From a virus: DNA of 31,138 bases. The translations under genes and the position numbers were made by a program. Positions 3,183 through 15,332 of the stretch are shown piece after piece. The first letter of the stretch is position 1. Each line of letters begins with the position of its first letter. The DNA is taken from the UHGV virus genome UHGV-0171672; one strand, written 5' to 3'. The notes beneath the pieces are model-generated. The model searched no databases, was not told the origin of the DNA, and saw only the letters and a program-made list of their open reading frames with translations.

Positions 3183-3527
3183 ATGAAGAAACCGGGAAAT
3201 TTTTCACAGCAGAATTTTCGAACAAGTGCCGAACGCCACGTTGCACGCCAGCACTTCCGCAAAAATAGTGCGACCACAACCACTGAAATCCATGCCACAC
3301 CAGACGGTCACCCGGTAAAACAAACCGGCAAGCACACCTGGACGATTGGCGACACTGGCATCGTTATTCACAAAAGTTTTCGCAGCCCTGTTACTGGCAG
3401 ATTTAATTTCACCCTGACTCGCGGGGATGATTACTTCGGACAGGACTTCACATTTTTTGAAGCCTTAAGAACGGCAGACAGATTAATCAGCGGCCTGCGT
3501 TTTCAATATCCGGGAAGCAAGCACTGA
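3183..3527 (+). CDS. Hypothetical protein
   Basis: ATG at 3183 preceded by AGGGA; an alternative ATG at 3126 lacks an SD. Confidence 0.5.
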   Translation: MKKPGNFSQQNFRTSAERHVARQHFRKNSATTTTEIHATPDGHPVKQTGKHTWTIGDTGIVIHKSFRSPVTGRFNFTLTRGDDYFGQDFTFFEALRTADRLISGLRFQYPGSKH

Positions 3528-4018: not shown

Positions 4019-4123
4019 CCTGAAGCCGAAAGCAGGCGCGGAATAACACCAGAAAACACACGAGCAATTAATTAAGGCATTCATGCCTTCGGGTTCCCTT
4101 TGTCTTTTTTCAGGAGTCAACAA

Positions 4124-4354
4124 ATGAGAACAGCCGAATCACCCGGCAGAGAAATAACCGCCAGACCAGCTAACCATCATGCGCATATCAGCATGGCCGC
4201 AAGAAAAGCCGAGCGTGCACATATCTGCGAATTACTGCGCGAGCTGACTGAGACAGCGAAAGAGACACACACCTGTCCACAGGAAACCTGCGCAGCCATT
4301 GAACGACTGATTGCAATACTCGCCAACCCAGACGAACTGAAGGGGTGCGCATAA
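4124..4354 (+). CDS. Hypothetical protein
   Basis: ATG at 4124 with AGGAG 6 nt upstream; stop overlaps the exonuclease start (TAATG). Confidence 0.55.
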   Translation: MRTAESPGREITARPANHHAHISMAARKAERAHICELLRELTETAKETHTCPQETCAAIERLIAILANPDELKGCA

Positions 4355-4935
4355 TGAACCATCTCATGATTGACACCGAAACACTGGGTAACGGACCGGA
4401 CGCAGCCATATTCGCGATTGGGGCGGTGTTTTTCGACCCGTTCACCGGAAAGCTGGGCAAGCAGTTTGAGAAATTCATCGACCCGGTGGATTCAGAACGC
4501 AACGGCGGAACCGTCAATGCAGCCACCGCTGTATGGTGGGCCGGACAATCCGTGGAAGCCAGAGCCTGCCTGCGCAACGCAGATGGAACAGAGCTGGCAG
4601 CAGTGACCGAATTTCTGGCGTTCATTTCACGCAATATGCATGACGAAAGCCCGGGCAATTCACTGAACATATGGTGTAAGGGCGCATCCTTCGATTTCCC
4701 GATCCTGAAATCCGCCATAACACGCACAGCCGGAGAAAAAAGCATCCCCTGGTGCTACTGGAACGAGCGCTGTATGCGCCCGCTTATCGCCATGGCTGAA
4801 TCAACTGGATGGAAAATGCCAGGCAGATCAGGCAAAGAGACCATTGCTCACACCGCGCTGGGCGACGCCGTTTACCAGGCAAAGGTCGTGTCAGAAATCT
4901 GGCAGCGCTTCACAACACCATTCCTGAACATATGA
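4354..4935 (+). CDS. DEDDh-type 3'-5' exonuclease (DnaQ-like fold)
   Basis: N-terminal MIDTETLG motif and later H...GDA-like motif typical of DEDD exonucleases. Confidence 0.75.
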   Translation: MNHLMIDTETLGNGPDAAIFAIGAVFFDPFTGKLGKQFEKFIDPVDSERNGGTVNAATAVWWAGQSVEARACLRNADGTELAAVTEFLAFISRNMHDESPGNSLNIWCKGASFDFPILKSAITRTAGEKSIPWCYWNERCMRPLIAMAESTGWKMPGRSGKETIAHTALGDAVYQAKVVSEIWQRFTTPFLNI

Positions 4936-4944
4936 GGTGAAGCC

Positions 4945-5172
4945 ATGGTCGCCATCCTGAATGTGTGTTGCTGCCCCCCCCTGAACGTGGAAAGAAAAGC
5001 CCGCGCATCGCTGCGTTTATTCCGCGACGGCGTGCGGAATTTTTCACGCATAAAACCCCACGACTACCTGGTAATAAGAATCGGTTTTCGCTGGCGATTG
5101 CTGAGCAAAAACAACGGGGCGTCATGGGATTTATTAACGCACGAAACCTATAACAAAGAGGCCGCGTTATGA
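4945..5172 (+). CDS. Small hypothetical ORF containing a C8 homopolymer, coupled to dam
   Basis: Strong SD GAGGTGA before ATG 4945; ATGA overlap with dam start; C8 run at 4974-4981. Protein sequence is not obviously globular. Confidence 0.3.
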   Translation: MVAILNVCCCPPLNVERKARASLRLFRDGVRNFSRIKPHDYLVIRIGFRWRLLSKNNGASWDLLTHETYNKEAAL

Positions 5173-6113
5173 GCAAAGAACTGTTATCCGGCACGCCGCT
5201 TAAATGGGTGGGCGGAAAAAGTCGCATCATGAACACACTGAAGGCGCATCTGCCAGAAGCAGACTGCCTGGTTGAGCCGTTTGTGGGTGGCGCATCGGTA
5301 TTCATGAACACCAGTTACAAGCGTTACATCCTGGGTGATTCCAATGGTGCGCTGATTAATTTCTACCGGCAAGCCAGGGACAACACCGACAGCCTGATCG
5401 ACGAGGCGAAAACCCTGTTCCTGAACCACAACAACAGGGGTGACTATCTCATCATTCGCGAAACCTTTAACGCAGAGAATCATGCCTTCCTGAACAGCAG
5501 AACGGGAATAAGCGACCGCCGTGAACTGCGACTGGCCGCCATGTTTTTGTACCTGAACCGACACAGCTTTAACGGTTTGTTCCGCGTGAACGGAAAAGGC
5601 GATTTTAACGTGCCTTTCGGCTGCTACCGCAAGCCCTACTTCCCTGAGCGGGAAATCCGCGCATTTGCAGACAAGGCAAACAGCACCCGAACGCTGCTTA
5701 TCCACGCAGATTTTAAGGATACGCTGAACTCTGCCAGTCACCTGTTCGGCATGGGCAACACGCTTTGCGTGTACTGCGATCCCCCTTACCTGCGATTCAG
5801 TGGCCGGGACAATTTCACCGCCTACGGAAAACCATTCGATGAAGACGAGCACGTTCGTCTGAGGGCAGCGCTTGACCGCCTTTCACAGGAAACGGGCGGC
5901 ATGACCAGCATCACCATATCCAATTCCGACACACCGGAAACCAGACGCATTTATCAGGGTTACCGGATGAACGCCATCCAGGCACCACGAAGCGTTGGCG
6001 CAAGAACCCGGGAATCAGCACCGGAGGTTATCGCCACCCTGAGATGCATCACATCCGCCTTATCAACGGTTCGCACTTCTGCGCCACGAACATGGAAGAA
6101 GTACGCGTGCTGA
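5169..6113 (+). CDS. dam: DNA adenine methyltransferase (Dam-like N6-adenine MTase)
   Basis: KWVGGK AdoMet-binding motif near the N-terminus and catalytic DPPY motif. Confidence 0.9.
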   Translation: MSKELLSGTPLKWVGGKSRIMNTLKAHLPEADCLVEPFVGGASVFMNTSYKRYILGDSNGALINFYRQARDNTDSLIDEAKTLFLNHNNRGDYLIIRETFNAENHAFLNSRTGISDRRELRLAAMFLYLNRHSFNGLFRVNGKGDFNVPFGCYRKPYFPEREIRAFADKANSTRTLLIHADFKDTLNSASHLFGMGNTLCVYCDPPYLRFSGRDNFTAYGKPFDEDEHVRLRAALDRLSQETGGMTSITISNSDTPETRRIYQGYRMNAIQAPRSVGARTRESAPEVIATLRCITSALSTVRTSAPRTWKKYAC

Positions 6114-6141: not shown

Positions 6142-6492
6142 ATGGCAGTGATTTATATCGCCGGTCCCATGACCGGATGCAAAGACCACAACAGGACGGC
6201 ATTTTGCGTGGAGGACCTGAAACTTCGGTGCGCCGGAAACATCGTTCTTAATCCTGCCGTACTGCCTGACGGATTAAGCCAGCAGCAGTACATGAGTATT
6301 TGTATTCCGATGCCCATGTGTGCCGATGCCATTTACTTACTGGATGGATGGGAAGAGTCCGCTGGCGCACGGGCTGAGTACGCAATGGCGCTCAAACTGA
6401 ACATGCCAGTGTCATTCCCGGAAAACCGGGCAGCCGGCGAAACCGTCGCGCAGCTGCTTCACAAATCAAAAGCCGCACAGGCGACTGAGTAA
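6142..6492 (+). CDS. DUF4406-like protein (nucleoside 2-deoxyribosyltransferase-like fold)
   Basis: VIYIAGPMTG ... IVLNPAVLPDGLSQQQYM ... YLLDGWEESAGARAEY pattern matches DUF4406 as I remember it; SD GGAGGT. Confidence 0.7.
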   Translation: MAVIYIAGPMTGCKDHNRTAFCVEDLKLRCAGNIVLNPAVLPDGLSQQQYMSICIPMPMCADAIYLLDGWEESAGARAEYAMALKLNMPVSFPENRAAGETVAQLLHKSKAAQATE

Positions 6493-6930
6493 CCGACCGG
6501 AGATCGAAACATGATTGCGCGCAGAGCTACCAACCGTCTCACAGGCTTTATTCCAGGCAAGGTTGATCATGCACTCCATCACGGGGCTGTCACTTTCCTC
6601 AACAAAGGAGAGGCGCGCAATCATGCATTCCGGGGTGAGCACGTGGCGCTGGCTAATCAGTCTTTGATAGCTAAGCGCCTGCCATTCAGCCTTTTCAGCT
6701 CTGATAGAAAGAGAGGCAGCCATGACCTGCCACACCAGAAAGAGCACCACACTGGCGAAAACAAACGTTGCGCTGTCGCAAAAAATGAATGCGGCAACAA
6801 TCGCAAGGAAAGCGCTAATCCTCAGAACCAAGGAAGCGCGACGGTGGAGAAGGCTTGTCATGTGTTCAAGCCAGTAGCTGTACCACAGGTCAAAAAGAAT
6901 TTCGTAATCAGAAGGGAGCTTATCACTCAT
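6466..6930 (-). CDS. Hypothetical membrane protein, antisense orientation
   Basis: ATG at 6930 (MSDKLPSDYEILF...), two hydrophobic helices; the only plausible coding content in 6.5-7.3 kb. Confidence 0.35.
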   Translation of the reverse strand: MSDKLPSDYEILFDLWYSYWLEHMTSLLHRRASLVLRISAFLAIVAAFIFCDSATFVFASVVLFLVWQVMAASLSIRAEKAEWQALSYQRLISQRHVLTPECMIARLSFVEESDSPVMECMINLAWNKACETVGSSARNHVSISGRLLSRLCGF

Positions 6931-7188
6931 CAGAAACACCCCGCGTATGCAGACAATCACCAGTTGCCAGGTGATATTAATTCGCAACATTCTAACCACA
7001 TCAGCACGCAACACAAAAACCGCTTGCCAGCGCTCGTCGTGTCGGGTTACATTTCCGCTGCACCTCATAAAACGGGTGCCGGGATTTCCACCCCGCTGAC
7101 AAACGAAGCGCACAGCCGCGCCAGCGGTTTTTTTGTGCGTACTGTATCGCCACGTCTTTTTCGCGTCAGAATTATGGCGGGGCGTACA

Positions 7189-7222
7189 GGGCCGACTTCG
7201 GTCGGGCCGGTTTCTTCGTTTG
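7189..7222 (+). terminator. Stem-loop with UUCG-type loop followed by T-rich tract
   Basis: GGGCCGAC-TTCG-GTCGGGCC then GGTTTCTTCGTTT. Confidence 0.3.
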
Positions 7223-7313
7223 CCGGTTGTGGAAACCCTGTACGTCTCGCCACCCTGAGTTTTCCACCTCTGGTTGGTGAGTTTTCAAAATTCACAAACG
7301 AAGAGGCCACACC

Positions 7314-7535
7314 ATGGCAAACCGCAAGCAACAGCGCGCCCGCGCTGAGCGTCTTCACATCCGCAGCGAAATCAACCGCAGACTTTTCCGCGCAACACGC
7401 GTCGCGCAAATCATGCATATCAACATGCTGCATGAGCGCACGCACGCACTATCAAACCGTTACTGCGCTGCTGTCTTCAGCTATCTCGCCGAAGATCTGG
7501 CAGAACTGCAAAGCCTCATCAACCAGCACCGATAA
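7314..7535 (+). CDS. Hypothetical basic protein
   Basis: 73 aa, SD AAGAGG; preceded by a 19-bp near-palindrome at 7277-7295. Confidence 0.55.
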   Translation: MANRKQQRARAERLHIRSEINRRLFRATRVAQIMHINMLHERTHALSNRYCAAVFSYLAEDLAELQSLINQHR

Positions 7536-7603
7536 ACCACATCCGGAAGCTATCCCACACCTGCACGCGGGAGGCTTCCGCACGTCTGTTACCGGAGGTT
7601 CTC

Positions 7604-8020
7604 ATGAAGAGCGTTAAGGGACTTTCAGATATTCAGGACTTCTTTAACTGGATGTGGGCGGTGGATCCCCTGCTGGCTTCCCGCCTGAACAACTGGCACG
7701 ACTATTACCGCCGCGCCTGTAAACAGGCTGCCCGCAGCGTCACCACATACGGGGATTTCTCCTTCACCGTGGACGGTCGTTACCGCGTGGACGTGAAAGG
7801 TGACGGTGATGGCTTTGGTTTATTTCACATCAACGGCACCGACAGTACCGCCATCAGCTGGTCATCGTCAGAGATGGCACTGGTTCTGGAAATGACAACC
7901 CACAGCGTGGCCGTGAAAGGCATATACACCGCAGAAGACTTTATCGGTGAATACCAGCGCCTTCTCGTGCTGTACCGCGCGGCGTTTCAGGAGGTCACTG
8001 GCGGGGAGTACGACGCATGA
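7604..8020 (+). CDS. Hypothetical protein upstream of A
   Basis: 138 aa, SD GGAGG; ATGA overlap with A. Confidence 0.6.
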   Translation: MKSVKGLSDIQDFFNWMWAVDPLLASRLNNWHDYYRRACKQAARSVTTYGDFSFTVDGRYRVDVKGDGDGFGLFHINGTDSTAISWSSSEMALVLEMTTHSVAVKGIYTAEDFIGEYQRLLVLYRAAFQEVTGGEYDA

Positions 8021-10530
8021 GTGACCGCAATGCACAGCTGGCGTACCCGTGGAACGCACCGCTACCGGTTATCGATCCTGAAACGTTCGGCAGAGCACAA
8101 CCAACCGCATTACGCCAGGCCATTCAGAGCTACATCAACGAGGACATTCGCATTGATGCCAGACTGGATGAAGAAACCGTCTCCTTCCTGACAAACACAG
8201 ACGAAGGCAAGCGAATTAATTCGCATCTTCACCACGACGAAGAGCGTCGGGTCAGACTGGAAAAACTGGCGAAGCACAAACGCGAGAATCCGCCCACGGT
8301 GGTATCGGAAGCCATGGCAGAACTTCGCGCCCTGCCCTCGTTTCTTGGCAACGTGCTCATTCGTGATCTGGCGCGTTTAAACCGCAAACAACAAAGCGCC
8401 CGCAATGAAGGCGTGAAAAACAACAACACTCACGTGGCCGATAACTTCGTTCGCCGTGGACTGCGCACACGCCTGAAACGCATCGAACAGGTGAATGAAT
8501 GCTTCGCCACGACGGCATTCAAAGCCACCGCAGCGCGTCATCGCCTTGATGAATTACTCATGCTGCCACAACTCAACCGTGATCAAATTCAGCGCCTTGC
8601 CACACTAACGGCGGCGGCATTTTCCACCGAACTGGAACGCATATGTGATGAAGTTACTGAGCGGACAGGAAAAGGCGACGATAACCTGTTTACCTGGTTG
8701 CTGACTTACCAGCAGCTGGCGCGCATGGCAATAAAACTGGGCGTGAACCCACCATACTGGCCGTCACTCGAGATCAGACGTGACCGCCGCACGGCACCAG
8801 ACCCTGAACTGGTACCGGGTGCGGTAATGCGTATCACCTGCGCCACCTGGTGGAACAACCAGCTGCGCCACCTCGCTGATCTCTGGCGGGAGGAATTACT
8901 GCGTGCCGCCGGAAGAGTATCGCGCAAGGCATCCCCCTACATCAGCCATGAGTCACTCCAGGAATTCCGGGAGAAACGCCAGCGCACCCGTGATTTTCTC
9001 AAAAGCTGGGACATTGAAAACGAAGACGGTGAACGCTTGAGTCTGGAGGACGTGTACTGGTCAGGGCTGGGGAATCCGCGCAACCGCCGCAACGAGATGA
9101 TGGCCTGCGTCAGAGGGATGGAACAGGTCGCCGAATCGCGTGGTGACTCCGCGTTCTTCGTGACAGTAACCTGCCCTTCCCGCTTTCACAGCGTGAACGA
9201 GGACGGCAGCCTGAACCCGAAATACAACGGTGCCACCGTGCGCGATGCCAGTGATTATCTGGTTTACGACGTCTTTGCAGCTGCAAGAAAAAAACTCAAC
9301 AAAGAAGGCCTGAGCTGGTACGGGGTGCGCACCGTTGAGCCACACCATGACGGCACACCGCACTGGCACATGCTGGTATTCACCGCCCCGGACAATGAAG
9401 AACGCATCATTGAAATCATGCGTGACGCAGCAATCAAATCAGATCGCGCAGAACTGGGGAATGATATTTCTCCGCGCTTCAAGTGCGAAAAAATCGACCC
9501 GGCAAAAGGCACACCGGCAAGCTACATCGCAACCTATATTGGCAAGAACCTGGACGCCAGCACCTTTCACGACAATGACCCGAAAACCGGCAAACCTTAC
9601 GCCGATAAAGAATCGGGAAAAACCATGGCGGAAACCGTGGAAAACGCCATTGCCTGGGCGAGTCTCCACCGCATCCGGCAGTTCCAGTTCTTCGGTATCC
9701 CGCCCCGACAGGTATGGCGTGAACTCCGCCGCCTTGCCGGACAAATGGAGCGTAACCCCGCATCACCGAAGCGCCTGGACCATGACGACATTGACGCCAT
9801 TCTGGCCGCCGCTGACGTGGGGTGTTTTGCCACCTACATCAACCGTCAGGGCGGCGTGCTCATTCCACGCAACCTGTACCTGATCCGCACCGCATACGAA
9901 ACCGCAGATGAGGCCAACGACTACGGCGAATTCCCGCAGCGCATCTACGGAATTTGTGCCCCGTCGCTCGGCGAGCGCTACACCATCTGTACCCATCCGG
10001 ACGAATGGAAACTGGTCAGAAAAGAAGCGAAATCCGACAACAGCACGGACGAGGGTTTTGACGTTGGGGGCGGCTTCGCCGCACCTTGGACTCGTGGCAA
10101 TAACTGTCCCCATGATGAAAAAACAGACACCGGAGAGGGTAAAAACCCACCACCGGAAACCAGGAAAGAACAAAAACTGGTCGTCCCGGGAGGTGATTTG
10201 GGTGAGTGGTTAAGGTCACTGACCCCCACAAAGCGAAAACAACTCACCAGGCAGCTGAAAGATGCGCCATCTGACACAAAAACCGTGAAAACCGGCGGCC
10301 CCACCACGCCCGATGACGTCATACATGTGCGTACAGCATTGCCGCTGACTGACGTCACCACCACCGTAATCAAGTCGGCACTGAGCGCGACGGGCGAGGA
10401 GCTACACAGTGGCGCAGCACTTTCCGTACACAGAGGTGCACGCGTTCGCCTGCCTGACGGGCGGATTGTGCACTGGGATGAGAAATCACGAAGCCTGGTG
10501 GCAGCAGATCAACCGGAGGTGAACCCATGA
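8017..10530 (+). CDS. A: Rolling-circle replication initiation endonuclease (P2 gpA-like)
   Basis: HUH motif TPHWHMLVF and paired tyrosines YIATYIGK; 837 aa. Confidence 0.9.
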   Translation: MSDRNAQLAYPWNAPLPVIDPETFGRAQPTALRQAIQSYINEDIRIDARLDEETVSFLTNTDEGKRINSHLHHDEERRVRLEKLAKHKRENPPTVVSEAMAELRALPSFLGNVLIRDLARLNRKQQSARNEGVKNNNTHVADNFVRRGLRTRLKRIEQVNECFATTAFKATAARHRLDELLMLPQLNRDQIQRLATLTAAAFSTELERICDEVTERTGKGDDNLFTWLLTYQQLARMAIKLGVNPPYWPSLEIRRDRRTAPDPELVPGAVMRITCATWWNNQLRHLADLWREELLRAAGRVSRKASPYISHESLQEFREKRQRTRDFLKSWDIENEDGERLSLEDVYWSGLGNPRNRRNEMMACVRGMEQVAESRGDSAFFVTVTCPSRFHSVNEDGSLNPKYNGATVRDASDYLVYDVFAAARKKLNKEGLSWYGVRTVEPHHDGTPHWHMLVFTAPDNEERIIEIMRDAAIKSDRAELGNDISPRFKCEKIDPAKGTPASYIATYIGKNLDASTFHDNDPKTGKPYADKESGKTMAETVENAIAWASLHRIRQFQFFGIPPRQVWRELRRLAGQMERNPASPKRLDHDDIDAILAAADVGCFATYINRQGGVLIPRNLYLIRTAYETADEANDYGEFPQRIYGICAPSLGERYTICTHPDEWKLVRKEAKSDNSTDEGFDVGGGFAAPWTRGNNCPHDEKTDTGEGKNPPPETRKEQKLVVPGGDLGEWLRSLTPTKRKQLTRQLKDAPSDTKTVKTGGPTTPDDVIHVRTALPLTDVTTTVIKSALSATGEELHSGAALSVHRGARVRLPDGRIVHWDEKSRSLVAADQPEVNP

Positions 10531-11845: not shown

Positions 11846-11886
11846 GTTACCCTTAGCAGCGAGGGTAACACAGGATTTCTTTTTTC
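11846..11886 (+). terminator. Rho-independent terminator ending the rightward early operon
   Basis: GTTACCC-N10-GGGTAAC stem followed by ACAGGATTTCTTTTTTC. Confidence 0.6.
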
Positions 11887-12592
11887 AGTCAAACCGAAAT
11901 CGGCCGCTTGTCGCGTATGCATAGGTGACCACCGCACCCAGCGCATTCACACGCTTCTTCACATAAATCACATTACCATCCTGATAGTCACCGTATGGGT
12001 AGCAAATAAAGATTGTTTTTTGCAAATCAGGATCATCAACAAATGCCCCTGAACAACTTTTTGAGCTACCGCGACTGTACTCATAGGGAGCGGAATAGAA
12101 TGAATCTTCACCCGGAAGAAAATATATCAGCGTAACCAGGAGGGTAAACAGAATCATCCAGGTAAGAAGGCACATACCCGAAAAAAACTTAAGATACGAT
12201 GTAACCCCGGTAAATTTAGACCGATCAACCAGGTTCTTTTTCAACAGGCACAGTGAGACAAAAACCGAAAGCACCACAGACACTGAAACAAGGCAGTTTG
12301 TCGTGAACGAATAAAGGTAGGTAATTCTGTAAACATCGTTTCGCCACCAAATAAAAAGAAAAATCCCCCCCAAAACAGAAAGCGTGACAAAAGTTAAATA
12401 AGGATATGAGTAATTTTTCACAGTTCTCACCCGGCAGTCTCCCACTGACTCAGACAGATGAATATCATCACCACCTGCCACAAAAAATCGCAAGATCAAA
12501 ACTACACAAAAGCGCACGAAATTGCACAATTTTTCTAATGTACTTTTTCCCCATTCCGCCCGGTAACGGCGCTGGCTGAGGCCGGTTTGCAC
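11885..12592 (-). CDS. Multi-TM membrane protein (cargo island, module 2); start uncertain
   Basis: At least three hydrophobic helices plus a ~80-aa C-terminal soluble region. The first ~25 codons of the track ORF overlap promoter-like repeat copy A, so a downstream GTG (12421 or 12430, after GGGTGAG) is the more likely start. Confidence 0.5.
   Translation of the reverse strand: MQTGLSQRRYRAEWGKSTLEKLCNFVRFCVVLILRFFVAGGDDIHLSESVGDCRVRTVKNYSYPYLTFVTLSVLGGIFLFIWWRNDVYRITYLYSFTTNCLVSVSVVLSVFVSLCLLKKNLVDRSKFTGVTSYLKFFSGMCLLTWMILFTLLVTLIYFLPGEDSFYSAPYEYSRGSSKSCSGAFVDDPDLQKTIFICYPYGDYQDGNVIYVKKRVNALGAVVTYAYATSGRFRFD
12511..12576. repeat. Promoter-like direct repeat, copy A
   Basis: agcgcacgaaattgcacaatttttctaatgtactttttcccc... 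aligns at ~75% identity (hand alignment) with 15438-15501. Confidence 0.5.
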
Positions 12593-12759
12593 GGTGCACG
12601 AAAAACGAGGCGAGTAGTGGATGAGTAAAAATTAATAATAAGTATAAGCAATGTCGATAAACCAAGACACAACAAGTATTCAACACAATTAATCATGCAC
12701 GTGCAAATAGCAATAACATTAACACATTATTTATATAAAAACAATCTGATATTATTTCG

Positions 12760-12790
12760 GTTGTGGGCTTGGTATTTTCAAACCCACAAC
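12760..12790 (-). terminator. Perfect 8-bp stem hairpin downstream of the three-gene module (non-canonical terminator candidate)
   Basis: GTTGTGGG-N15-CCCACAAC, 35 nt past the stop of the 263-aa gene in an AT-rich spacer; no clean U-tract. Confidence 0.25.
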
Positions 12791-12824
12791 AATAATATTA
12801 TTTCGAGATATTAAACATAGACAA

Positions 12825-13616
12825 TCACCCTATTTTTCTATGCATTTTCATGAGTTCCCTTATTAAGCTAGCATGAAAGATTGATACATCAGAAATCCTT
12901 GTATCAATAGATGAATCAATATTATCAGAAACCTTTTGCTCAAATAAATCGCAGATACCATCAAGTGACTCAATATCTTTTTCCAACTTAGAAAAACCCT
13001 TAAATAGATATAATGAATCCCTTAACTCCCCAAGCTTTGAAAATAGTTGGCTATCTAGTAATGATATAAATTCATCAGAGGGAAGCCCCATCGCATCCTT
13101 AAAATCTTCCGTAACTTCAAAAGCTAATCCATTAATTTTAGGGAGAATAACTTCTCGTAACCAATACCCTTCGTTTATAGCTTCATTTCTTCCTTTATAA
13201 TGCTGCCACAAAGGAACCCCTACAGATGCAATTAGCGCAATAATTGAAATTGCTATAGAGTACCATTCAGGTCCTGATTCAGGAACTCTAACGATATTAT
13301 AGAGATTCCCCGATGAGGTTGAGGGGTAATATCCATTCAGAACATAATTATCAGGTTTATCATAAAGAAGGTGCGGTGTAAACTTCCTTTCATAACTATT
13401 GCATAATTTTAGATCGCTATTTTTTCCAATGCATATATCAGCATTAAAAATGTTTCCACTCTTTGGTTCTATTACGTGAGACTCTGAATTTTGCGAATCC
13501 ATGTTAGACGCGGTTCTTTCTAGATATGTCGCAGAGCAAGCGGATATATTAACAAAAAAAATGACAGGCAATGCTGTCATTTTAAAAACAGAACACAAAT
13601 CAGAAGAACGGAACAT
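12825..13616 (-). CDS. Lipoprotein-like membrane protein with internal TM helix (cargo island)
   Basis: N-terminus MFRSSDLCSVFKMTALPVIFFVNISAC has a lipobox-like ISAC; internal helix WYSIAISIIALIASVGVPLW; 17-nt overlap with the upstream gene. Confidence 0.6.
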   Translation of the reverse strand: MFRSSDLCSVFKMTALPVIFFVNISACSATYLERTASNMDSQNSESHVIEPKSGNIFNADICIGKNSDLKLCNSYERKFTPHLLYDKPDNYVLNGYYPSTSSGNLYNIVRVPESGPEWYSIAISIIALIASVGVPLWQHYKGRNEAINEGYWLREVILPKINGLAFEVTEDFKDAMGLPSDEFISLLDSQLFSKLGELRDSLYLFKGFSKLEKDIESLDGICDLFEQKVSDNIDSSIDTRISDVSIFHASLIRELMKMHRKIG

Positions 13617-13944
13617 TTCGATGTAATCCTCTTCTCACAGCCCTATCCAGCTCAGAAAGCATTCCTTCTTTATAATTCACTCCATCTAAAGATGTTCTGC
13701 TATAAAATTCATTCGGAGATGAAAAAAGAGGCAATATATTCTCTAGCATACCCAAAAAGTATGAGCTTGACACAACCACACCATTCGGAATTGATAGAAA
13801 AATCCTATCATTGTTATCAAAAGTAAAGCGATCTATGCCAAAGAAACTATATGCCTTGCGACCATTATCACGCCCAGCAAATAATTTCTTGCCGCCATCT
13901 TTAACTAATTTATTGAAATCTATATAAATATTTGCCATTTTCAT
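13600..13944 (-). CDS. Small STAS-like (DUF4325-like) protein, partner of the GHKL ATPase
   Basis: 114 aa; segment IFLSIPNGVVVSSSYFLGMLENIL resembles the SSSF-type motif of DUF4325/STAS proteins; SD GAGGAA; 11 nt after the ATPase stop. Confidence 0.55.
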   Translation of the reverse strand: MKMANIYIDFNKLVKDGGKKLFAGRDNGRKAYSFFGIDRFTFDNNDRIFLSIPNGVVVSSSYFLGMLENILPLFSSPNEFYSRTSLDGVNYKEGMLSELDRAVRRGLHRNVPFF

Positions 13945-13955
13945 TTACCTATTCC

Positions 13956-15332
13956 TCAGGTTCTTTGAGTTGCATTTTCCGGTAAAGGAAAACGTATATT
14001 AATCATAACTCCCGGAAAACGGGCTTTCTGCATACACTTAAGATAGGTACGATCTGGTTCAGATTCAAGCCCTGTATTATTAAATGGATAAGTGAATTTG
14101 TCACTTTGGTTATCTAACGTTTGCTTTTTCAACTTATAAGAACCATCAAAGTTTATATGTGTGCATCCAGAAATTAAAGACATTCTGATGTTTCCACTTA
14201 GTTCTTTGGATAGTTCTTTTAAACTATCATGCATATCCTGGAAAAACTTCAATAGCTCAATGGTTCCCGTACCAGAACTATCTGTCTCCGTTTCATTTTT
14301 ACAACTAACCCGCCCCTGCAAAGCAGCGACTGTAATCAAACCTTCTCTAAACATCCCTTTTTTATTTATGTGTTTTTCCACATAAGGGATTATGTGATTG
14401 TTATATGAATAATGTTCTAAAGAAAGTCCTGAAAAAGTTTCATCAATAGTTTTTCCAAAGTTAAAAACAGCTATTTCACATGTTGGCTGTTTTAAGCCAT
14501 TATTTACAAACCCCCTCAAATACCAACGCGGACGCTGCTCAAGCCCACAATGTCTCTCTGCATTATCAAGTAATTCGCCCATGCAAGATGTTAGATGGTT
14601 TTCTGCCTTGCTAACTAATTTTAATTGATGATCACTTAGACACTCGTTTATATAATTAGTGAATTTCTCAGACATTCTATTTTTGGTATCTTGTGCAAAT
14701 GCAGACGCATTTTCCTTGCCGATACTATCAGCAGAGAATATTCTTTTCTTAGGGTTATCTTTTTTCGATTTTTCTGTTTCATCATGCACCTTCCCTGGCG
14801 TCACTTTATTTATTTCTTTAACCAACCCGATGTCACGAATAATTTCTAAATATTTTTCATCCTTCGGATAAATGCCATTAAGTTGTACTTGAGCATCTTT
14901 TAAATTTATATTGTGACGTTTGGCTGAGCTCAGTGCAACACCAAGGAGACATTCCGCACCTAAACAATGCTTTTTATTTTTAGTATAATCAAGCAAATAT
15001 GATTTACGTTTACCCCTGGCAATCAATCTAGTTACACCATGAATAAACAAAAGAGATTTTTCTGGATGATCAAACAAATCGAAATATTTAGGTATTATTA
15101 TTCTATCTTCTTTGCGACGAAGAGTTGCAGTATCATATTTCTTTACGGATGAAATACTTTCAATAAAAGTAGCCACCTGACTTTTCACTGGTGTTACTTC
15201 GTCAGAAAAATGTAACCTTTCATAGGCTTTATATTTAATTCTTCTTTTATTTTTTCTCTCAACGCCTTTTAAAAAGCGAATCCAACCACGTAAAAAGCGT
15301 TTTCTTGCATCCTTTTTATCTATTTTTTTCAC
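13956..15332 (-). CDS. GHKL-type (histidine-kinase-like) ATPase with basic N-terminal domain
   Basis: N-box ELLDNAERH (encoded around 14551-14577) and Gly-rich DSSGTGTIELL; GTG start at 15332 after AAGGTGA; K/R-rich ~240-aa N-terminal region. Confidence 0.7.
   Translation of the reverse strand: MKKIDKKDARKRFLRGWIRFLKGVERKNKRRIKYKAYERLHFSDEVTPVKSQVATFIESISSVKKYDTATLRRKEDRIIIPKYFDLFDHPEKSLLFIHGVTRLIARGKRKSYLLDYTKNKKHCLGAECLLGVALSSAKRHNINLKDAQVQLNGIYPKDEKYLEIIRDIGLVKEINKVTPGKVHDETEKSKKDNPKKRIFSADSIGKENASAFAQDTKNRMSEKFTNYINECLSDHQLKLVSKAENHLTSCMGELLDNAERHCGLEQRPRWYLRGFVNNGLKQPTCEIAVFNFGKTIDETFSGLSLEHYSYNNHIIPYVEKHINKKGMFREGLITVAALQGRVSCKNETETDSSGTGTIELLKFFQDMHDSLKELSKELSGNIRMSLISGCTHINFDGSYKLKKQTLDNQSDKFTYPFNNTGLESEPDRTYLKCMQKARFPGVMINIRFPLPENATQRT

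Follow-up and report, generated by a model that had tools for sequence, protein, structure and literature searches.

A poly-C tract of variable natural length in a ParE-like early gene of an Escherichia coli P2-family prophage

The virus genome UHGV-0171672, a stretch of 31,138 nucleotides (nt) read as one strand and hereafter called the window, is a P2-family prophage of Escherichia coli. Its early operon contains a gene for a protein of 75 amino acids (aa), located directly upstream of a gene for a Dam-family DNA methyltransferase (dam), and this small gene carries an uninterrupted run of eight cytosines (C8, positions 4974–4981; here and below, features lie on the plus strand unless stated otherwise). 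We found that the run differs in length among natural copies of the locus. This polymorphism is real and unusual for E. coli and, judging from the alleles recovered, the tract gains and loses cytosines recurrently in nature and is a slipped-strand hot spot. The explanation that we favour, with a probability of roughly 0.55, is that the tract is a mutational hot spot at mutation-selection balance, which would toggle a gene with a predicted toxin fold and have at most a minor secondary effect on dam. The original prediction, made from the letters of the window alone, had seen in the small open reading frame (ORF) a leader coupled to dam and in the tract a possible phase-variation switch of the methyltransferase.

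The small gene extends from ATG 4945 to TGA 5170–5172, and the tract occupies its codons 9–13 (TGC TGC CCC CCC CTG), which makes the gene the direct target of any frame change. It is preceded by a Shine-Dalgarno (SD) sequence, GAGGTG (4934–4939), with a spacing of 5 nt to the start codon; this motif overlaps the stop codon of the upstream exonuclease gene (4933–4935) and is kept in almost all related loci. At the other end, the stop codon overlaps the dam start codon (5169–5171) by 4 nt in the sequence ATGA (5169–5172). Reading of the sequence thus confirmed the C8 run, the SD sequence and the stop-start overlap that had originally been described. Just 5' of the tract, the motif ATGTGTG (4961–4967) provides start codons in all three frames (ATG 4961, GTG 4963 and GTG 4965), none of them with an SD sequence. 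Two stop codons matter for the shifted alleles: TGA 4982–4984, which ends the ATG-4945 frame straight after the tract when this has seven or ten cytosines, and TAA 5151–5153, which ends the shifted frame when it has nine. In a structure model of the protein, the Cys-Pro-Pro-Leu loop encoded by the tract sits between the predicted strand beta1 and helix alpha1. The mere presence of one such run in 31 kb is no more than chance would give, with one C8/G8 run observed against 0.76 expected from dinucleotide-preserving shuffles and at least one in 46 of 100 shuffles, but the behaviour of the tract goes beyond chance.

A search of a phage genome collection gave no near match to the window, the distant matches being only fragments of the dam or exonuclease genes, so that all our comparisons come from E. 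coli genomes, IMG/VR and metagenomes; the closest relative in a complete genome is a prophage of E. coli S1-CAM-02-A (95% coverage, 98.9% identity). An alignment of 160 nt from five near-identical E. coli loci shows no difference except in the length of the run, which is C7, C8 or C9. Among 27 complete E. coli genomes with the locus, 20 have C8, three have C7 (MSB1_4I, JNEC-KY203 and JNEC-KY208), two have C9 (NCTC9112 and LZSFT34), none has C10, and the run is interrupted in the remaining two. Using a flank-gap-flank pattern scan, we gathered ten more loci from IMG/VR (C7 in three, C8 in five, C9 in two, no C10) and 13 from metagenome contigs (C8 in ten; C7, C9 and C10 in one each), with no interrupted tract in either set. 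Pooled over the three collections, the 48 uninterrupted E. coli loci comprise 35 with C8, seven with C7, five with C9 and one with C10, and 13 of them (27%) are out of frame with respect to ATG 4945. When these loci were sorted by the haplotype of their 330-nt flanks, one haplotype contained C7, C8 and C9, another C8 and C10, and two others C7 and C8; a conservative count by haplotype gives at least 12 independent length changes. We also looked up the exact sequences of the predicted allele products in a collection of 15 billion proteins. The C8 product was present on at least 1000 contigs, that of C7 on 100, C9 on 31, C11 on nine, C5 on five, C6 on three and C10 on one, and a truncated call of 46 aa, probably also derived from C7, on a further 30. 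The alleles that lie three bases from C8 and keep the frame (C5 and C11, 14 contigs) are therefore more numerous than those that lie two bases from it (C6 and C10, four contigs). In three clonal sets of genomes (eight genomes), all tracts are C8. The suggestion that the tract is open to slipped-strand length change was thus well founded: alleles from C5 to C11 exist, C7, C8 and C9 occur on identical flanks, and in the comparison among related prophages that had been proposed the tract is variable and not invariant.

The ORF that holds the tract is a real, conserved protein-coding gene and not a leader. Its product matches the Pfam family PF24732 (ParE_like; E-value 1.1e-17, 64 bits against a cut-off of 24) and phrog_1525 (residues 4–73 of the 75-position profile), and exactly this ORF is annotated by the Prokaryotic Genome Annotation Pipeline (PGAP) as a 'ParE family toxin-like protein' (WP_000225756.1). 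A RelE/ParE toxin fold is predicted for the protein, and fold and profile together point to membership of the RelE/ParE superfamily. Homologues occur in Klebsiella, Enterobacter, Citrobacter, Salmonella, Pantoea, Yokenella, Raoultella and Serratia; almost all are 75 aa long, a length kept in at least seven enterobacterial genera, and their N-terminus is conserved (M-x-P-R-L-S-V-x-C-S-A-P-L), which indicates that the conserved product is the long form translated from the SD-driven ATG. Between E. coli lineages, the ratio of nonsynonymous to synonymous divergence (dN/dS) of the gene is 0.2–0.45. The conserved residues R45, R51, K55, H66 and Y69 are compatible with an RNase, though they prove nothing. 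No recognised antitoxin domain adjoins the gene and PADLOC gave no match, nor did NCBIfam or a profile search of PDB sequences for the protein itself. Our search of the literature on PF24732, on phase variation of Dam in P2-like prophages, on homopolymeric tracts in E. coli prophages and on orphan ParE-like proteins found no prior description of the system.

The consequences of a length change can be read from the alleles. In those with C7 or C10, the ATG-4945 frame encodes a peptide of only 12–13 aa, and in those with C9 an unrelated basic product of 69 aa, whereas the stretch further downstream that codes for the conserved domain is undamaged in every shifted allele. PGAP accordingly places the start of shifted copies at ATG 4961 (C9, 70 aa), at GTG 4965 (C7, 68 aa) or further downstream (61 and 46 aa). 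These rescue starts have no SD sequence and their products lack the predicted strand beta1, so they would be expected to yield little or no functional protein. We considered ATGTGTG as a 'designed' motif offering a start in every frame and rejected the idea, since a sister lineage that still has the tract carries ATATGCG instead, which makes ATGTGTG probably a product of chance. We also rejected the notion that shifted alleles are a symptom of prophage decay, because their prophages match the window as completely as do their in-frame siblings: the shifted NCTC9112 and the in-frame EC2, UCPROB and SW0716 strains each match it at 75% coverage and 98.8% identity. The shifts are thus recent or reversible and not part of a general decay.

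Homopolymers of eight or more are a classic site of sequencing error, and NCTC9112 is a PacBio assembly; it might be argued that errors made in the homopolymer by sequencing or assembly account for the length differences and that the tract is really stable. However, short-read SPAdes metagenome contigs and IMG/VR loci contain the variants too, the same shifted protein is found on 100 contigs for C7 and on 31 for C9, and consensus errors would hardly produce alleles that are three bases off C8. Other homopolymers in the same assemblies serve as controls. The second-longest G/C run of the window, a C7 at 12365–12371 inside an ORF on the minus strand (11885–12592), is spanned at the same length in 21 of 22 complete E. 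coli genomes and is constant in NCTC9112, MSB1_4I and JNEC-KY203, in which the C8 tract varies. Likewise, A/T runs of 6–7 nt in the same loci are constant in length with a sole exception, the T6 run at 4105–4110, just upstream of the start of the phrog_22206 gene (4124), which is T6 in 12 related loci, T7 in six and T8 in one, and is the only other length-variable homopolymer that we saw. The short-read variants, the three-off alleles and the constant control runs together make an artefact extremely improbable. In the STEC17-183 genome, the stretch matching the 12365 region is 2 nt longer as a whole, and no gene is annotated under the match. It is also conceivable that the run acts as a recoding site, at which ribosomal frameshifting or transcriptional slippage would allow one allele to make both the 75-aa protein and a shifted product. 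The context CCC-C is documented as slip-prone for tRNA-Pro (PMC4519876, PMC7577736), slippage by −1 in C7 or by +1 in C9 would rebuild the exact wild-type protein, and in E. coli the alternative frame runs for 62 codons without a stop. Nevertheless, the second product is not conserved: the alternative frame contains 5–7 stop codons in five of ten loci from other genera (Klebsiella spallanzanii, Raoultella, Enterobacter vonholyi, Hafnia and Serratia bockelmannii), which also led us to reject a conserved overlapping gene in that frame. The other genera moreover lack the tract, and RNA folding around it is no better than that of shuffled sequences (z = 0.17), giving no stimulatory structure. We regard recoding as a very improbable function of the run, although slippage of tRNA-Pro in the ribosomal P site may make the off state of shifted alleles leaky.

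The proposal that the small ORF gates dam, so that changes of the tract would switch the methyltransferase in an epigenetic or anti-restriction phase variation, fares little better. It draws on the stop-start overlap, on the fact that translation of the upstream gene ends 185 nt short of dam in C7 and C10 alleles, and on the partial pairing of the dam SD sequence in the minimum-free-energy fold. Yet dam has an SD sequence of its own, AAGAGG (5156–5161), 7 nt before ATG 5169, which had not been taken into account, and the RNA fold around its start is no better than those of shuffled sequences (z = −0.84; an equally good fold in 36 of 200 shuffles). Two P2-family prophages, in the E. coli strains Bongo (locus L046, 1150–1270) and JNEC-KY174 (H28), contain the homologous exonuclease and dam genes and lack the small gene altogether; in both, dam lies 37 nt past the exonuclease stop codon, and their sequence agrees with that of the window from position −29 relative to the dam ATG onward, with an identical AAGAGG and start. 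In addition, the gene encodes a conserved protein whose neighbour changes: in Enterobacter vonholyi it overlaps the gene for a 565-aa CxxC-motif protein (probably a primase), and in Serratia two ORFs separate it from dam. Since it overlaps whatever follows in other genera, the ATGA junction appears to be ordinary operon packing. Coupling would in any case persist in C9 alleles, in which 16 nt separate the end of the shifted frame from the dam ATG. We found no C-rich, G-poor, rut-like stretch downstream of the tract that would suggest Rho-dependent polarity, no terminator-like site on the plus strand between the ORF and dam, and no sigma-70-type promoter-like site next to either, matches across the region being at chance level. 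An attempt to compare dN/dS of dam between the window and two related loci (L008 and L009) was discarded because the alignment was unreliable (172–181 differences in 525 nt, probably due to an indel). With its own SD sequence, no significant RNA structure, prophages devoid of the small gene and a variable downstream partner, dam appears independent of the small gene. Control of dam by the tract is not supported by these comparisons and nothing points to an effect on dam in C7 and C10 alleles, where a modest loss of coupling is possible. Of the phase-variation idea, the length-variable hot spot stands, while the evidence speaks against Dam as the object of the switch, which we consider improbable.

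How the tract arose and why it persists is less clear-cut. We infer a non-adaptive origin: in the E. coli lineage, the codons TGC CCC CCC CTG for Cys-Pro-Pro-Leu would happen to form an uninterrupted C8, which would be prone to slipped-strand mispairing during replication and so gain and lose cytosines recurrently. Alleles with C8, C5 or C11 would give the full protein from the SD-driven ATG 4945, those with C7 or C10 would stop ribosomes at the TGA directly after the tract, and those with C9 or C6 would give the 69-aa nonsense product. In shifted alleles, the conserved domain would be reachable only through internal starts without SD sequence or through rare −1/+1 slippage of tRNA-Pro, and expression would presumably be off or strongly reduced. 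If, as we infer, the early operon is repressed and silent in lysogens, shifted alleles would probably be cheap there and could accumulate to about 10–27% of copies. This out-of-frame share, at most 27%, is far lower than the two-thirds expected at neutral equilibrium. Together with the predominance of C8 across lineages about 17% apart at synonymous sites, the dN/dS below 0.5 and, subject to possible gene-calling bias, the excess of C5 and C11 over C6 and C10, it indicates that selection maintains the in-frame state, presumably during phage replication. As for the tract itself, nothing indicates that it is maintained beyond chance: 0.76 such runs are expected per window, the other genera have Ser-Ala-Pro-Leu at its position and no run longer than 4 nt, and in a sister E. 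coli lineage (two complete genomes) it is interrupted as CCCCACCC, in the same frame and with a Pro-to-Thr change.

The strongest competitor of the hot-spot explanation is an adaptive contingency locus, in which the run would be kept for the advantage that stochastic on/off switching of an early protein with a toxin fold gives to phage or lysogen, for example by removing leaky toxicity in the lysogen or as bet-hedging against host defences that sense the protein or are blocked by it, reversion then restoring the gene. Several observations agree with it. Out-of-frame alleles (13 of 48, with at least 12 origins) are spread over many backgrounds without further decay and in intact prophages, perfect C8 persists in two lineages with a synonymous divergence of about 0.17, in-frame C5 and C11 outnumber C6 and C10, and the toxin fold comes without a recognised antitoxin. 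On the opposite side, the tract is absent from all other genera with the gene and interrupted in the sister lineage, about one C8 per 31 kb is expected by chance, and the tract holds only four synonymous sites, so that its survival at a synonymous divergence of 0.17 is unremarkable. The early operon is, furthermore, expected to be silent in lysogens, and the uniform C8 of the eight genomes from clonal sets implies that switching is not very fast. Adaptive maintenance therefore seems to us possible but unlikely. A bolder version appears more doubtful still, namely a P2-family E. coli phage with a true contingency locus, in which reversible poly-C switching of an antitoxin-less RelE/ParE-fold early protein would produce mixed lysogens and virions differing in host takeover, lysogen toxicity or interaction with defences, with tRNA-Pro slippage partly rescuing the shifted alleles. 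Some points weigh against the hot-spot explanation. An out-of-frame share of 20–27% on many backgrounds without further decay is also what reversible switching would produce. The 48 loci may contain duplicates across collections as well as clonal relatives, and because the C8 count of the exact-protein look-up is a minimum (at least 1000 contigs), the shifted fraction derived from it can only be an upper bound. Gene-calling bias could partly explain the excess of three-off over two-off alleles (14 against four contigs), and some of the variant genomes are long-read assemblies prone to homopolymer error. We favour the mutational hot spot over a true contingency locus, although the present data cannot decide between them.

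At the left end of the window, an integrase and a repressor are encoded on the minus strand; the early operon, on the plus strand, has the order DUF4761, DUF4754, the phrog_22206 small protein, a 3'-5' exonuclease, the 75-aa ORF, dam and DUF4406; the gene for replication endonuclease A (8017–10530; phrog_91) and those for portal, terminase and P2-type capsid proteins lie further downstream. The exonuclease is Rv2179c-like (4345–4935, with the PGAP start at 4354). The methyltransferase gene (5169–6113) encodes a Dam-family N6-adenine enzyme of 314 aa with a DPPY motif (CDPPY encoded at about 5780–5794), which matches PF02086 (E-value 1e-51) and TIGR00571 (226.9 bits against a cut-off of 114.85); its score of 218.8 falls below the equivalog cut-off of 441 for the host Dam, so that GATC specificity can only be assumed. 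The phrog_22206 gene (4124–4354) encodes a protein of 76 aa whose homologues, with the motif ARKxERAHLxxLL...TPEEI (L014, 2801–2986; L016, 2807–3007; L017, 2810–3004), directly precede and overlap the ParE-like gene in Raoultella and Serratia, while in E. coli, Klebsiella and Yokenella the exonuclease gene sits between the two. As a lead, this protein may be a candidate partner or antitoxin of the ParE-like protein.

We made several side observations in the same region and its relatives. The DUF4406 gene after dam (6142–6492) matches phage 'nucleoside 2-deoxyribosyltransferase' families (phrog_355, E-value 3e-37) and thus belongs, with the exonuclease and dam genes, to a nucleic-acid-modifying cluster of the early operon. 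After this DUF4406 gene and ahead of an ORF at 7604, Rfam models identified the Hfq-binding small RNA isrK (7060–7134; 64 bits against a gathering score of 50) and a C4 antisense RNA (7170–7257; 82 bits against 45), which makes the long ORFs on both strands at 6466–7617 probably spurious. A block of four genes on the minus strand (11885–15332; ORFs of 235, 263, 114 and 458 aa), located between the replication gene and the portal gene at what we take to be a P2 accessory or defence cargo position, gave no match in Pfam or PADLOC and may be an uncharacterised system. Finally, in Klebsiella sp. WOUb02 (L013, 2977–4368) the conserved N-terminus of Dam is encoded ~190 nt past the stop codon of the ParE-like gene, inside an ORF starting at 3358, and in Raoultella terrigena (P0037) the ParE-like protein has 118 aa and its C-terminus continues in another frame; in both cases, a further disruption of frame may have hit this operon.

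Should the switch prove functional, E. coli and the early operon of a temperate phage would gain a rare case of repeat-mediated phase variation, which would provide a handle on the role of a widespread small phage protein with a toxin fold (phrog_1525, PF24732). Even as a mere hot spot, it leaves between roughly a fifth and a quarter of the copies in databases frame-shifted at one site, and annotation pipelines begin these at no fewer than three different start codons and report them with different lengths (68, 70, 61 and 46 aa). A phase-variable prophage Dam, tempting as the idea was, can be set aside as unsupported.

Several known systems resemble parts of this locus. The type II toxins of the RelE/ParE superfamily (RelE, YoeB, YafQ, HigB and ParE, the latter including the prophage-borne PaaA2-ParE2 of E. 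coli O157, PDB 5czf) have 84–121 aa, against 75 aa here, and in contrast with them the ParE-like gene has no recognised antitoxin family beside it and is set inside a phage replication/early operon. With the pairs of phage genes translationally coupled through ATGA it shares the 4-nt overlap, and similar overlaps exist at the junctions of this gene in other genera. Nothing suggests that dam relies on such coupling, given its own SD sequence, the lack of structure in the RNA and the existence of prophages from which the upstream gene is naturally deleted. In phasevarions, repeat tracts lie in mod or hsdS genes, and the likeness consists of a repeat tract next to a DNA adenine methyltransferase gene. 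Here, however, the tract is outside both the methyltransferase gene and its promoter, dam has its own SD sequence and is also present where the small gene is missing, and its product is a solitary phage enzyme, encoded in a lytic operon. As the gene that is switched is not that of the methyltransferase, the locus is no phasevarion.

The closest parallel is with the poly-C/G contingency loci of Neisseria, Haemophilus, Campylobacter and Bordetella, in which a run within an ORF switches the gene by slipped-strand mispairing. E. coli is proficient in mismatch repair, and switching by homopolymer tracts has, to our knowledge, rarely been reported in this species. The prophage tract differs from those loci in lying in an early-operon gene and not in a surface or restriction-modification gene, and in being short (8 nt), lineage-specific and within chance expectation, so that it lacks one defining trait of such loci, a tract maintained beyond chance. 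Like them, it is an uninterrupted C run near the 5' end of an ORF in which a change of one base shifts the frame, and it occurs, as known here from natural sequences, in several lengths on otherwise identical sequence; a frame-shifting tract inside an ORF and a recurrent natural polymorphism are the defining traits that it has in common with the classic contingency loci.

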